A DNA stretch of 64,000 bases, taken from the NCBI GenBank assembly GCA_964270895.1, contig OZ185440.1. One strand, given 5' to 3'. The notes under the pieces were generated by a model. The model saw nothing but the letters and a program-made list of their open reading frames with translations. It was not told the DNA's origin and made no database searches. The stretch's first letter is position 1; the number at the start of each line of letters is the position of its first letter. A program made the position numbers and the translations under genes. Below, piece by piece: positions 5,850 to 63,510 of the stretch. Source of the DNA: Podarcis filfolensis. Lineage: Eukaryota.

Positions 5850-6900
5850 CAAGGCAGGCACCGGCAACATCCCCATCGCCCCCCCCCCCGCTGGGCCGAG
5901 GCGCCCTGATTCAGCCCCACCTGCTCCAGGTTAAAGGCAACCAGGAAATCGGAGCAGCCGAGCAGGGAATCTTTGACGCGTCCGTCACCAGGGAAAGCTG
6001 CTGCGAGTTCAACCAAAATAAACACCCGGCGGTTCAGTGCGTGACTCACGCCTCCTCCCCCACCGCCCCCATCTCAACTTTTCCGGAGACGAAGATTTCC
6101 CAAAAGAGAGATCCGGCATGATCGCGCCCAAGAACCTGGCGGGCTTCTTGCAGAGCAGGCGCTGCGTGCCTTGGGCCGCCTTGGGCTCCCGGGCCGAGCC
6201 GGCTGCTCCTCTCCCGGCGCGCCCTCCAAGCAGCCGCCCGCCCACAGCGGAGGACACGCGGAGCGCCTGCCTGCAGCCGCCCCGTCCCGCCAAACTCCGG
6301 AGAAGCGCCGGCCGGGAGGGGCCGCCGGGCTCCCCTTCTGCACTCGCCCCCCCCCCTGCAAGGAGCATCCCCGGGGATTTCCACCTCCCCCCCCCCGGCT
6401 CCAATTCATGGGCAAAGACAACTCTCTACTTCTGGAGGAGATGCTTTGCAGTCTTTAAAAGTGGCGGGGAGTGCCCACGGACATGCAGGAGGGGGCTCGG
6501 CCCAGACAGGCGCACGTGCTCCTCGCGTACCTGGCATAGAAGCAGCAGCGCCGCCGCCAGCATGTCTCCTTCCCCGGCGAAGCCGCCTCTCCGCTTCGGC
6601 CCCCTCCGCGCCGGGATTTGTGCAGAGGCGCTCAATACCCGCCAGTGTCTCGCTCTGCCGCCTTTTAAATTGGCCAGCCGCAGGGCGCATGCGCCGAGGC
6701 CGCCGGGGTGGAGTGAGGTTGGCTTTGGTCGGGTTCGGCAGAAGGGCTTCTCCCGACCCCGAGGCATCGTCGAGGGGGCGGGGCGGGGGCTTCTCCTCCG
6801 GTCCTACCGGCTCTGCGCTTCCAGGCGGCGATTGGAAGAGACTCGGCGACCGAAGAGCGCAGACGGCGATGTTTTCTGGAGGGAAGGAAGGGAAGGGTAG
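5850..6900 (-). promoter_or_regulatory. CpG-island promoter of a minus-strand gene that continues beyond the left window edge (possibly SLC45A3 by synteny; not proven)
   Basis: Minus-strand order: CCAAT (6835-6831), GC boxes GGGGCGGGGCGGGGG (6775-6789), NRF1 palindrome GCGCATGCGC (6685-6694), CCAAT (6673-6669), TATA-like TTTAAAA (6669-6663), then a donor CAG|GTACGC at 6531/6530. Confidence 0.8.
6531..6640 (-). other. Probable first exon of the left gene; contains an ATG reading MLAAALLLLCQ up to the donor
   Basis: About 25-30 nt downstream of the TATA-like box; ends ...CTATGCCAG|gtacgc. The TSS position is inferred. Confidence 0.55.
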
Positions 6901-7770
6901 ACCGAGATTATACGCACACACATCTGTCGAGGGAAACGTAGGAAGTTTCCACTCGTTTCAGTGAAGTCTATTTTGCAGTAAACAGCCCTGTCCCGAGCAC
7001 ACGCTGCGAGGCAAGCGTTATGATGGTCAACTAAGTTATACTCCGAGTAGACCCACTGGAATCAGTGAAGCAGAGTTAGCCACACCCATTCATTTCGATG
7101 GGTCTAGGTAGGATGAGTGTGCGATGCAATCCCTAGCTTCACTTAACATGATATTTAAGGATATTATGTTGGGCTTAATGTTTTGCTGTTAGCCTGGTGG
7201 TTGCCAGCATTTGATTATTCCTTTTGGGGGTGATTCTGGAAGCTGCGTTGAGAGGGTTTGACCCAGAACGATGACCTTCAAATATTAGTTGTTAAAGGGG
7301 ACTGCAACAACAGCCACCCAGTTCTACTCTGTGAGAAAAGTGTGAAAGATTTCCTTGATGGAAAGGCAGAGGGGAAAAGCTAAGGTTGATTTCAGTGGAA
7401 CTTACTTGCACAAATGGGGGTGGGGGAGCAATTTCTCCACTTTTTTCACTCTGCCCAATACCTAGATGAAAATAGACAGAATTACCTAATAGAAAATGTA
7501 TGTCATTTATTTTAAAAACACCACTGGATTCAAAATTTCACCTGGATTAAGTGGATCTCAAATGGCCTTCTCTCACAGGCTAAACTATTGCCTCAAAACA
7601 CACATGATGTTGATTATTTATTACTTGCAAATCACTCGACCTTTGGATGTTCAGGTATTGAAGGAGAAAGTAAAGAGAGCTGCTGCACTACAAACATTTC
7701 TGTCCTTCCCTCCTTTGGAATCTACAATCAGCAAATGGCCTCTCTTACTTAATAACTCAATGGACTGAGT

Positions 7771-25301: not shown

Positions 25302-25912
25302 GGTTAGGAGCAGGTGCCAGGAGCAGGTCAGTAACAACTCACACAGTGTCAGTGAAGTTAACTCTTTATTCATAGGAACAAGACAACTCAGGAGCCCAGG
25401 CCCAGAGATCACAGCAACTCTTCCCAGTAGGTCTTGCCCCAATGAGGCATTTGCAAGGACTAAACTACCCTGTCTTCTCACAGCTCCCTAAGTTTCCTCC
25501 TCCCCTGGTTCCTTCCCAAGCAATCTGAGGCTCCTTCATTTTGTCTGTCTTTGCTCCGCCCTCTTCATACTTCACTGGGTTCTGGGAGACCAGGAGAGAG
25601 GGCAGCTGGTCACTGCAGGAGGGGGAGACAGCTTAGCTTCCTCACCAGCCTGACTCATTGCTGCCTCTTGGCTCCTCTCCTCTCTAGCCTCTGCTTCTGC
25701 CTCTGAGTCTAAACTGCTCTCTGCCCCAGCATCTCCCTGTTCACTAAACCCTGTTACCTCTTCAGCTTCCGACACATCCTCCTCCCATTCTGTTCCTTCT
25801 TCTCCCTCTGACCATGTCCCACCACCAAGCCCCTGGCTCCGAGTCTTCTTCCCTTGAGGGTTCCCCAGCCGGTACCTCCCACCAATCCTCTGCATCCAGC
25901 TGGTCCATGAGA
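25302..25912 (-). mobile_element. Solo LTR (611 bp) of an LTR retrotransposon, with a decayed acidic ORF in U3
   Basis: Minus strand starts T(C)TCATGG and ends CTCCTAACC (decayed TG..CA); AATAAA at 25370-25365; 5-bp TSD aactg/aacta; motifs homologous to the LTR at 43218. Confidence 0.72.
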
Positions 25913-42834: not shown

Positions 42835-43034
42835 TTAATCTTCACCAGAGGGGACGTCATCTTCAGACCCTTCATCCCCAGATTTGTCTGGAGGAGGACT
42901 AACTGATTTCTTCTTTCCTGGAGGACTTTCAGGCTCTTCGTCATCATCTTTTGGGGATGGGGTCTTTTCTTTTGATGTCTTTGAAGCTGTGGGACGGCCT
43001 CCCTTCCCTTTGCCCTTCACTGGACTAGGTGTAA
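42835..43034 (-). CDS. NUCKS1: NUCKS1 exon 8 coding part ([19 protein letters not shown]...SGED*)
   Basis: ttttcttccttcag|TTACACCT...GAAGATTAA, 200 nt to the stop codon; contained in track ORF 42835..43065. Confidence 0.97.
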
Positions 43035-46000
43035 CTGAAGGAAGAAAAGCATCAAAATGTAACAAAGAATCTTACAATTAGTGCTTTTTTTAAAAAAATA
43101 GCTTCTGAGCACATTTTAAAATATGTTTTTCCTTTCTTAACTTTTCAATCTGGTAACGTAGGAATGAAAACGTATTAGTACTATTGAACATAGCTTAAAT
43201 TCCTACAAGATGATGCTTGTCAGGGCCCTGAGAAGTGTGTGGCAGAGGCCCCCTGAGGCTGATCCAGGGGGTGGGGTCAGTGATTTATGGGCTTTTGTGC
43301 CACCTGTGAGGCAGGAGCTTGGTCTGGACCAAGTGTCTGAACAGTCAGAGACAGTGGAAGGGGTGCAGGATGCGTCAGGAGCAGAGGAAGAAACTGTTGA
43401 GAGGGGCAGGCTGGTAGAATCCCCTCCGTCACTTTCCCTGTTGTCTCCCAGGACGGGTTTGAAGAGACAGGCACAGCAGCGATTTCAGTGTAGAAGTCAC
43501 AGCTTGTTTGTGTGTACCCTGTCAGGGAAGGGAACTTAAGTGTGGGTGGAGGCAGGGTCATGTGGACGCAACAGTCCAGCTCAGAGCACAAGCCCGGGGA
43601 AAGAGTACCAGTTATTCAGTTGCCATAAGAGTGTGTGTGTTTGGTGCACCTTAGGAGCTACTCTAGTGCATGCTGTCAGTAAAGAATTAAGCTACTGGCT
43701 GTTTGTCTTCCTTGGGCTTGGTGTGCTCAGGTCAATGCCCAATTCCTCCTAATAAGAACCATATTTTTTAAAATTATTTAAAAGACTTATGAGAGCCTGC
43801 TATTGTGTCAGCAATAAAATGTGCCAGCAGTGAGGCACCCTCTCCCACATCCTTCTTAAAGGTGCCATTAAAACTTTCTTAGAACTGATGCTCACCATCT
43901 TTCTCTTCTGCAAGGGTAAGCAGCCAGTTATGATAAAAGCAAATTTGAAACAGAATGACTTTCACTAAAATACGAAGGCATCACAGGGTTAGTGTAATGT
44001 AAGCTGGGCATGTGGCAATTACATGGTTGTACATACTCCTAAATAATGCACAGCATTTCAAGTGTTGTAACTGATTTTAGGCTGAAAACACAGCCAGCGT
44101 GAATGCATTTATTCTAAAATTCTCCTTCAGTATAGCAACTAAAGGTTGGGAGCACCATCTCTTCCTTTCTCCTAGAATCATGATACATTTGATATTTAAA
44201 GGAACATAACAGTTGGGCATACCCGTTATCCAAGTAATTGTTTAGATAATTTAATCCAAGCCTCCAAAAAAATTTCCACCCACACTGTGCTTACACTTTT
44301 CTTAAGACAAGGTTTAACCAAATGAGTATTTATGCTTTCAGGATGTATGTAGCTTTGGGTACACCTGGAACTGTGCTAAGATTCACCATATTATTTTCAC
44401 GCCTAATGGAAGAAAGGGAATTTATTAGGATTGGTAGGCACGAACATCACCTGTTTTAATCAGCACTGGCAAGTGGTCTGAACACAATACCGGTAACCAA
44501 GAAGTCATAAGAATCCCATCCTGATACAGCCACTAGCTTCTTTGAAATCAGGAGCAATCCATACAAGAACTTTCCAGCAATCAGCTCTACCACATTATAC
44601 AGACTGCCATGTATGTTAATAGGGATAAATTGCTAGTTGAAAATTGATTGCTTCCTATCCTTTCAAGCACAAGAGGTGAAGAGCTGAGAAAACATAAGCA
44701 CTTGCAAGCAAATTTCCATTATGTTATTCCTAACAGGTGCAAAGGGGAAGCAAGCTGAGCTCACCTGTAGCCTTTAGCCTTGGTTTAGGCATTTTCTTTT
44801 CTTTCCTTTCTGGTTTGGATTTCTTAGCCACTTTTTTGTTCTTCTTTTTTGAACTGCCATAGTCACTATCATCATCATCTTCCACAAGGAAGTCTTCATC
44901 GCTGCCAGACTCTTCTGTGCAGAGAGAGAGGAATGAAATGTCTCTAAGAAGGGCTGTCCTTGTTCACTTGGAAGAGAGACAGAATGGGGGAGAAAGTCTG
45001 GTAGGTTGATCAAGGGATAGAAGTCAGCATTCTTGGCTTCTATATCCTGTAACATACTTGCTAGAACTTGGAGAAATCAGGACTTCTGCGCCTCAGTATT
45101 TCCTCATGTAAATCTGCTTTATGACTGGTGACAAGCAGCACAATTATTTAAAACAGCAGTGGCATAGGCATAGTTCTCCTTCCCTCAAGAGCAATTACAT
45201 GGAGGCTCATCCTGACCATTTCCTATGCCAGCTGCTGTAGGTTCTATATGAATTCCCTTCCCAGCCTATGTCTGTTCTCTTGTTCAATATGGTCTTCCAT
45301 CTTGTAGCAAGCTGTAGAAGTGCCCTCGGAAGCAAACACCAGTAACTTATTATATATGGAATAGCAGTAGCTTACTGCTTCCTATAACAGACTTCCAGGT
45401 TTTGAATCCAGATGTCCATGATTCTAGTTCATCAGCTCACTGGGTTTCTCTTGTTTATTTGCACACACTCACAGCAAATATCAAACGGGTCCCCACTTTT
45501 CATCATTTAGAGCAAGGGTATGTCAATTTGCACAACAGACAAGCAAGAAAGCAAAATCTGAGGTGCAGGCATTTTACCACATATTGATTTTTAATTGCTA
45601 ACCATGTACACAAGGGGATTTGAGGCCCTTTACTGTCTCCTGAAGCCAGATAGGATGGTATTTGTAATCAAAGTGGCCTGTTCAGTTTGTTGTCCAGTGC
45701 TGAAGATAAAACAGTGACGAATATGGCAAGTTTGTATCTTACTAATAGAAATATTGACTAAAAGCTCTCCACAAGTCCAAAAAGATTTGGACCCTGAACT
45801 TGAGGGACAGCATTGTTTTCCCTTCCCTCTTTGTTGTCAACAGCCAAGCTGGACACTAAGTACATTAACAATGAAGTGCATTCAATACTCAAGAAGCAGA
45901 AATGTCAAGTTTGCCTACCTTGGCAGCTTAGCCTGGATAGATCAAGCATGGATGTAATTTGTCGAACCCACTCCTATTCTACATTGTGTGTGCCGTTCAG

Positions 46001-61686: not shown

Positions 61687-62859
61687 TTATTATTTGTACC
61701 CCACCCATCTGGCTGGGTTTCCCCAGCCACTCTGGGCGGCTTCCAACAAAGATGAAAAATACACTAAAATGTCACATATTAAAAACTTCCCTGAACAGGG
61801 CTGCCTTCAGATGTCTTCTGAATGTCAGGTAGTTGTTTATCGCTTTGACATCTGATGGGAGGGCGTTCCACAGGGCGGGCGCCACTACCGAGAAGGCCCT
61901 CTGCCTGGTTCCCTGTAACTTGGCCTCTCGCAGTGAGGGAACCGCCAGAAGGCCCTCGGAGCTGGACCTCAGTGTCCGGGCAGAACGATGGGGGAGGAGA
62001 TGCTCCTTCAGATATACTGGACCGAGGCCGTTTAGGGCTTTAAAGGTCAGCACCAACACTTTGAATTGTCTCGGAAACGTACTGTGAGCCAATGTAGGTC
62101 TTTCAAGACCGGTGTTATATGGTCTCGGCGGCCACTCCCAGTCACCAGTCTAGCTGCCGCGTTCTGGATTAGTTGTAGTTTCCGGGTCACCTTCAAAGGT
62201 AGCCCCACGTAGAGCGCATTGCAGTAGTCCAAGCGGGAGATAACCAGAGCATGCACCACTCTGGCGAGACAGTCTGCAGGCAGATAGGGTCTCAGCCTAC
62301 GTACCAGATGGAGTTGGTAAACAGCTGCCCTGGATACAGATTTGACCTGTGCCTCCATGGACAGCTGTGAGTCCAAAATGACTCCCAGGCTGCGCACCTG
62401 GTCCTTCAGGGGCACAGTTACCCCATTCAGGACCAGGGAATCCTCCACACCTGCCCGCCTCCTGTCCCCCAAAAACAGTACTTCTGTCTTGTCAGGATTC
62501 AACCTCAATCTGTTAGCCGCCATCCATCCTCCAACCGCCTCCAGACACTCACACAGGACCTTCACCGCCTTCACTGGTTCTGATTTAAAAGAGAGGTAGA
62601 GCTGGGTATCATCCGCATACTGATGAACACCCAGCCCAAACCTCCTGATGATCTCTCCCAGTGGCTGCATGTAAATGTTGAAAAGCATGGGGGAGAGGAC
62701 TGAACCCTGAGGCACCCCACAAGTGAGAGCCCAGGGGTCTGAACATTCATCCCCCACCACCACTTTCTGAACACGGCCCAGGAGGAAGGAGCGGAACCAC
62801 TGTATGACAGTGCCCCCAGCTCCCAGCCCCTCAAGACGGTCCAGAAGGATGTTATGGTC
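61646..62859 (-). mobile_element. 5'-truncated L2-clade LINE (RT C-terminal half), young but frameshifted
   Basis: GVPQGSVLSPMLFNIY...YADDTQLY...SRLDYCNALY...HWL (ORF 62047..62763) continues after a 1-bp deletion near 62075 as FKVLVLTFKAL...REVFNM* (ORF 61772..62092); (AAT)n tail at 61646-61690. Confidence 0.95.
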
Positions 62860-63510
62860 TAAACTGCACTAGGCCCCCTGGACCATATATCTGTTCTACT
62901 GCTTTTGCCTTTGCAACCTTTATTGTTCTGTTCTGTCCCAGTCTCCCACATATACATTAAACAGCAGCAGGATACAGATTTTACTTTAAAAATATGTTGG
63001 GCATGCTGTGCAGCACAGCACCCGCTAAATATCCACTGTGCCCCCCTACCCCCTTCTTCATTTTTGTCACGCCGATGACACTGGGGAAATGAAGATGGTT
63101 TTCCTGTCAGCCTGTGCTTTGCTGCAGAACATAGCCCACATGTTTCAGCCACAGAAAAAGGCAGTGTGGGAAGGGAGAGGAGTGGCTGAAGGGCAGAGCC
63201 TACCCCTGGATACATTTCATCAAGCTCCACTCGCTGGTGTGGATAGCAAGCAGTGGAATAGCCATGAATTGCCATGAGTAAAAGCCACCACACTATGTGA
63301 AAGTGAGTCCACTATGTATACAGAGAAATCGAACCACACCATACATATACAGCACATAGCTTCCCATGAAGAGTTCTGGGAAGTGTAGTTCACTCCTCAC
63401 AGAGTTATAATTTCCAGAATGCTTAACAAACTATTGCTCCCAGGATTCTTTTCAGTTAAGGCAATGTGCTTGTTACTTACCATGTGGCTGGATGAAACAT
63501 TATCACTATA

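Follow-up and report, generated by a model that had tools for sequence, protein, structure and literature searches.

A long open frame in a lizard solo LTR as the probable relic of a chromodomain-Gypsy Pol tail

The window analysed here, a stretch of 64,000 nucleotides of Podarcis filfolensis DNA (contig OZ185440.1; C6:59706001-59770000 of a 1.5-Gb genome), contains a solo LTR, LTR 2, that reads open for 106 codons from its second nucleotide. The sequence-only reading had taken this frame, and a homologous one in a second LTR of the window (LTR 1), for a real LTR-encoded protein. Does such a locus hold a gene, the remains of one, or neither? Our preferred answer, to which we assign a probability of roughly 80%, is that LTR 2 is an old solo LTR whose frame is what remains of the C-terminal tail of a chromodomain-Gypsy Pol, now decayed, and no gene by itself. 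The following features enter the argument:

25302..25912, minus strand: LTR 1, a solo LTR of a sister family, in the same phase as LTR 2, with in-frame stops
43035..44764, minus strand: last intron of a host gene, with LTR 2 inside it in antisense (from spliced reads and exon translation)
43213..43217, plus strand: left target-site duplication, ATGCT (from the sequence)
43218..43734, plus strand: LTR 2, a solo LTR of an old dispersed Gypsy family, likely a chromovirus (from copy comparison and CpG o/e)
43219..43539, plus strand: 106 sense codons and TAA, likely a relic of the Pol C-terminal tail (integrase, past the chromodomain)
43225..43254, plus strand: codons 3-12, outside the family frame, flanked by deletions of 10 nt and ~5 nt
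43420..43506, plus strand: SPP...SPRT..LKR...RS..L block, the best-conserved part of the tail (from the copy alignment)
43678..43683, plus strand: decayed polyadenylation signal AGTAAA, which is AATAAA in many copies
43735..43739, plus strand: right target-site duplication, ATGCC (from the sequence)

The segment at 43218-43734 has the organization of a solo LTR, namely TG...CA ends with a short inverted repeat and a duplication in the range of 4-6 bp. It starts with TGTCAGG and ends with GGTCA (GGACA in other copies and in the likely orthologues), and the flanking ATGCT and ATGCC represent a 5-bp target-site duplication with one mismatch. Duplications of 5 bp likewise surround the family copies and a young full-length element described below. 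The CpG o/e of LTR 2 is 0.17, compared with 0.60 for the LTR of that young family.

Translation of 43219-43539 confirmed the 106 sense codons from LTR nt 2: 43219-43536 gives 106 residues, TAA occupies 43537-43539, and the frame contains no ATG. Base shuffling of LTR nt 1-330 (5000 replicates) left a given frame open over 106 codons in 0.5% of cases, and among 27 other copies, 4 read without a stop for at least 95 codons from nt 2, so that the trait is uncommon, not unique. Most copies begin with 10 nt more than the window copy (for example, VRDWQGSEECVAEA in L003); the window copy lacks these 10 nt and, near 43250, a further ~5 nt, which restores the phase. Profile and alignment comparisons bear out the proposed homology and common phase with the LTR 1 frame, except that codons 3-12 fall outside the family frame. 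Overall, six deletions within the frame (10+5, 6, 3, 6 and 3 nt) add up to a net in-frame change, and two Arg-type codons after PRT are missing. The shorter start recurs in two other copies, back in phase by codon ~17 (3/3 pattern matches), where the restored phase may be inherited from a frame-keeping source lineage. In a related organism (organism F), a 98%-identical copy carries C>T at 43480, turning codon 88 into a stop, and in another (organism C) a 94%-identical copy has a 2-nt insertion after 43477, at codon 87 (one contig at depth 4.7, a possible error). We take both copies as orthologues because paralogues reach at most 76% identity over such lengths.

LTR 2 lies in antisense in the last intron of a gene which, from its exon translation, we take to be NUCKS1-like. 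Spliced reads with CT..AC borders link 43034 to 44765 in 4/4 RNA runs, which carry the label of a related species. As for the host exon at 44765-44914 (minus strand), reads at 43034 run on with the same sequence as those at 44914, and this exon appears to be skipped in some transcripts; run X23 has 17 such reads and 35 spliced to 44765.

It is extremely unlikely that the host has retained the window copy as a small protein gene or exon. The 106 open codons and the six deletions summing to an in-frame change would fit retention, but the frame lacks an ATG and lies antisense within an intron, RNA depth over the LTR never exceeds 0.64, against about 10-90 for the main exon bins (the four runs labelled as a related species), and the copies in organisms F and C are interrupted as described. 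Maintenance of the frame is not supported, since part of it is frameshifted, its likely orthologues are broken, the region is spliced out and reads are almost nil. The window copy looks dead and decaying, its open state owing to inheritance and luck, and the locus is likely inert.

The copies of both families in the genome are old solo LTRs. Of 167 candidates from a DNA search with LTR 2, 40 were scored and gave 53 matches, with 65-76% identity in the long ones, and a protein search gave at least 150; for the LTR 1 family there were 4872 candidates, of which the 40 scored are 76-80% identical. Family copies have TG..CA ends (CCTGACA at the 3' end in LTR 1 copies, CAGGACA in LTR 2 copies), 5-bp duplications and unrelated flanks, and a tblastn search of 60 + 32 loci, some of them duplicates, detected no gag or pol even with 1.5 kb of flank on either side. 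The two LTRs had been described as very divergent in DNA; however, the LTR 2 DNA profile matches LTR 1 copies with E values down to 3e-17 over profile nt ~110-420, beyond the stop codon, and they therefore represent sister families rather than unrelated DNA. Of the two window LTRs, LTR 2 is open, but LTR 1 has two in-frame TGA codons within the 23 codons examined. The proposed common terminal stop holds at the family level, where AACTTA supplies an in-phase stop in both families, but the window LTR 1 reads AAACTTAG instead of GAACT-TAR.

Several candidate internal regions were rejected. The upstream flanks that LTR 2 copies have in common proved to be duplications and LINE pieces, and a pattern combining a purine tract with the LTR 2 start had two matches, neither with gag or pol. 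An upstream block common to L135, L138, L147, L160 and L161 showed no gag/pol similarity; these five places hold duplicates of one 1.5-3-kb block, about 89% identical, with an LTR-1-type fragment embedded in it. A single element at L027 (C10:3232567-3235836) matches LTR 1 nt 21-524 and LTR 2 nt 251-517 and is possibly an intermediate or recombinant of the two families.

The family alignments, built blind to codons, allowed us to examine the frame beyond the window copy. A stop was counted as shared when at least half of the copies had it in the same column. No shared stop occurs in the T|GTC phase over 117 codons in 27 LTR-2-type copies (2 and 4 in the other sense frames) or over 143 codons in 25 LTR-1-type copies (4 and 5), although a single antisense frame in the LTR 1 family is free of them too. 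The 14 LTR 2 copies recovered by DNA search have 0 for T|GTC versus 3 and 6.

Column identity at the three codon positions, computed with the first-four-codon block (the degenerate-pattern anchor) left out, is 0.71/0.66/0.60 in the 27 LTR 2 copies (0/10000 permutations), a biased set in that about half of it came from the protein search. The 14 DNA-found copies give 0.73/0.73/0.69 (p 0.036), the comparison across the two families 0.54/0.55/0.45 (p 0.049), and a 15-codon block in unbiased copies p 0.079. Equal conservation of third positions had been named as the outcome that would speak for cis-elements; they are less conserved, weakly so once protein-found copies are set aside (p 0.036, 0.049). 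No codon periodicity was found after the stop (p 0.12; p 0.6). In-frame indels make up 16/36 inside the frame versus 4/28 after it in the LTR 2 family, and 15/54 versus 3/31 in the LTR 1 family, a test confounded by the slippage of GAG/GAA-rich DNA by threes. The signal is consistent and modest, and suggests that coding constraint probably acted on the frame in the source elements. To this extent, the claim of a real, once-coding frame stands, with no shared stops and more variable third positions.

The same data bear on the idea that the shared motifs are promoter or other U3 cis-elements and that the frame is open simply because the sequence is purine-rich. LTR 1 and LTR 2 DNA do remain homologous beyond the stop, the third-position effect in unbiased copies is small, and GGGAACTTAG sits 3' of the stop in the young LTR, so that the stop motif may also act in cis. 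We nevertheless consider this explanation very unlikely, given that a single sense frame is free of shared stops in both families, that periodicity is absent past the stop, and that the phase is identical to the Pol phase in relatives.

These relatives include a young chromodomain Gypsy family. Its full-length element at L035:3359-8846 has identical 408-bp LTRs, a TTACG 5-bp duplication, gag, and Pfam matches to PR-RT-RNaseH-IN, SH3_Tf2-1 and Chromo. The pol frame crosses the polypurine tract (..G-G-D|V-R..) and reads GAT|GTC|AGG at the LTR boundary, in the phase of LTR 2, and continues through an acidic stretch, TPTPRR and a basic cluster, mostly for 100 codons inside the LTR. At least 150 copies are 98-100% identical at the integrase end, and in many of them pol is open over 1374 codons. 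The 30 loci compared are top-ranked, near-identical copies of this one family; pol is in phase with the LTR frame in 28 of them and terminates at LTR nt 302 in 27. The 11 nt directly behind the 5' LTR can pair with LTR nt 280-290, a pairing that presumably resembles Tf1-type self-priming; if priming is indeed Tf1-like, the RNA would start near the end of the tail.

Older pol-attached ends were reached through a purine-tract and LTR 1 start pattern, which gave 37 overlapping matches, with a chromodomain only at L170. Here, a decayed chromodomain is followed by an LTR that agrees with the usual LTR 2 start at 16/17 first nt and belongs to a third solo family with the layout of LTR 1 and LTR 2. 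A query from this region recovered 73 older 3' ends, with a detectable LTR start in 56. The LTR frame is in phase with the chromodomain in 26/56, with 15 and 15 in the other two phases (binomial p 0.028, the copies being non-independent); a count by key motifs scored 38/73 ends, 19 of them in phase. D-W-type starts (V-R/M-D-W, as in LTR 1 and LTR 2) are in phase in 5/12 (L207, L229, L234, L261 and L303) and broken in 7/12, mostly within or near G runs. A query containing the junction, and hence biased to in-phase ends, yielded five more (L316, L318, L323, L326 and L332) and one new out-of-phase end. D-W-type remnants have the PR-RT-RNaseH-IN order in L280 and L281 and Chromo in L229, L256 and L205. 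A sizeable fraction of the listed internal chromovirus remnants is on contig C19, which we guess to be a repeat-rich sex chromosome.

The link to LTR 1 is provided by L211, where SH3_Tf2-1 (E 9e-16), a chromodomain-like region and a purine tract precede an LTR matching the LTR 1 DNA profile (E 1e-16 and 7e-6; reversed controls without matches). In L211 and L205, the LTR frame is out of phase with its own chromodomain as sequenced. For LTR 2, its DNA profile found no convincing LTR behind pol in 70 chromodomain-downstream regions (best E 3e-4), and no pol-attached LTR 2 type was found in 7 long regions or in two further 30-locus sets that overlap these regions; L234 has the first 14 nt alone in common with LTR 2, followed by an insertion. 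Matches of the LTR-ORF protein profile to pol-linked tails are weak (best E 4e-4; reversed control best 0.055).

A further family, with the start TGTGATGG and an ATG at LTR nt 5, has 6/18 ends in phase and 7 and 5 out. Its tail (in L223, L225, L230, L239, L242 and others) contains RRSARL-type motifs, which we take to be like HMGN nucleosome-binding cores. The out-of-phase ends could point to a separate accessory protein of Nef-like or superantigen-like layout, spanning the purine tract and U3, which at least some families would make from a spliced RNA or from a dedicated ATG. LTR 1 and the third D-W family likewise have ATG at LTR nt 5, 12/18 TGTGATGG ends are out of phase with pol, and the post-chromodomain reading of L205 ends at the LTR boundary. 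Such a protein is nevertheless quite unlikely, as LTR 2 has AGG at the ATG site, the out-of-phase ends are spread over both wrong phases with breaks mostly in G runs, and the young family is in phase at nearly every locus. A small separate protein is possible in some families, because of the 6/18 count for TGTGATGG, the out-of-phase L205 and L211, and the weak profile matches.

The sequence-only reading had proposed that the frame begins upstream of the 3' LTR, as Nef does, and that a frame closed just upstream would count against it. The upstream start is supported, the frame being open there in relatives (28/30 young and 26/56 older ends); the comparison to Nef as a separate gene is not, because, where upstream sequence is readable, the integrase chromodomain most often runs on into the frame without a break.

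The decayed-Pol-tail explanation can be put as a sequence of steps. In the related elements, pol continues past SH3 and the chromodomain, crosses the polypurine tract and enters the 3' LTR in the T|GTC phase, ending about 100 codons inside. The source elements of LTR 2 probably read pol into the 3' LTR likewise, which we infer from the homology chain connecting LTR 2 to LTR 1 and LTR 1 to a pol-attached LTR. The tail would therefore be present in every LTR copy, and recombination between LTRs would leave solo copies without a start codon. Translation of the tail would occur from full-length RNA only; since it lies mostly in U3, upstream of the LTR transcription start, a solo LTR would not be expected to express it.

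What the tail did in the source elements is a matter of analogy. The chances are about even that it formed a disordered integrase extension, with an acidic stretch, an S/T-P-R site and a basic cluster, serving nuclear localisation or tethering to chromatin; the tether idea draws on the plant CR motif, on the targeting regions of Ty1 and Ty5, and on Arg anchors that bind the acidic patch of H2A/H2B. In a more far-reaching version, lizard chromoviruses might possess a second, LTR-encoded integrase module behind the chromodomain (acidic, with an S/T-P-R switch and a basic RRS-x-R-L-type anchor) tethering the integration complex to nucleosomes or nuclear import factors, convergent with the plant CR motif and, in some families with ATG at nt 5, uncoupled from pol as a free small protein; we regard this larger proposal as rather unlikely.

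A profile search of 1.84 billion proteins returned 32 matches at E<=0.001, all of 42-184 aa; the 8 inspected contain no chromodomain and look like solo-LTR gene calls. No longer relatives of the LTR frame were found among 7984 scored candidates and no chromodomain-tail fusion in the protein databases, both weak tests, and no Pfam family corresponds to the frame. Two other frames were seen in passing: an intronless 251-codon frame in L037 (about 6600-7360, minus strand) with SIM-like repeats and a C-terminal RING, presumably like an RNF4 retrocopy, and a 273-codon reverse-transcriptase-like frame in the window (62047-62868, minus strand), presumably a LINE remnant.

These results account for the resemblance to small genes of very common lizard solo LTRs, from which gene callers already produce short proteins; such frames should not be annotated as genes. 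Across many families of one genome, the phase and the acidic-then-basic layout of the tail have been kept despite sequence turnover, and the role of a post-chromodomain integrase tail in vertebrates is therefore testable.

Among known systems, HIV/SIV nef and MMTV sag are separate Retroviridae genes expressed from spliced RNA that overlap the U3 of the 3' LTR. The lizard frame resembles them in overlapping U3 but differs in that it probably forms the terminus of a Gypsy pol; LTR 2 has no ATG, and the frame is continuous with pol in 28/30 young and 26/56 older ends. The integrase C-terminal targeting domains of Ty1 and Ty5 are not known to be LTR-encoded. As functional models for the lizard tail, these Copia elements are nonetheless instructive, since short modular regions of the integrase tail can steer integration (PMC11054761). 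Vertebrate chromoviruses of the Sushi clade have the LTR motifs TGTYANR ... CNTNACA (PMC3601003): TGTCAGG fits the 5' motif, the LTR 1 end CCTGACA fits the 3' motif, and the attached pol contains SH3_Tf2-1 and Chromo, whereas the LTR 2 end CAGGACA is one letter off the 3' motif.

A search for reports of a reptile chromovirus pol running into the LTR returned none in the literature outside Repbase/Dfam and subscription journals. In plants, the pol frame of CRM group A elements runs into the 3' LTR, so that each LTR contains the integrase C-terminus, a proposed targeting domain (PMC3059260). The lizard elements share this pol extension, but in group A the CR motif replaces the chromodomain; the relatives studied here have no such replacement 3' of the purine tract, keeping Pfam Chromo upstream of the tract with the tail added after it. 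We take LTR 2 for a real coding relic in a solo LTR that looks dead, with an already known layout of pol continuing into the 3' LTR. In plant elements, that layout is identical in the chromoviruses Bingo1-4 and Bingo7 of Beta vulgaris, in which the chromodomain lies upstream of the purine tract and the frame extends into the flanking LTR (PMC3605345).
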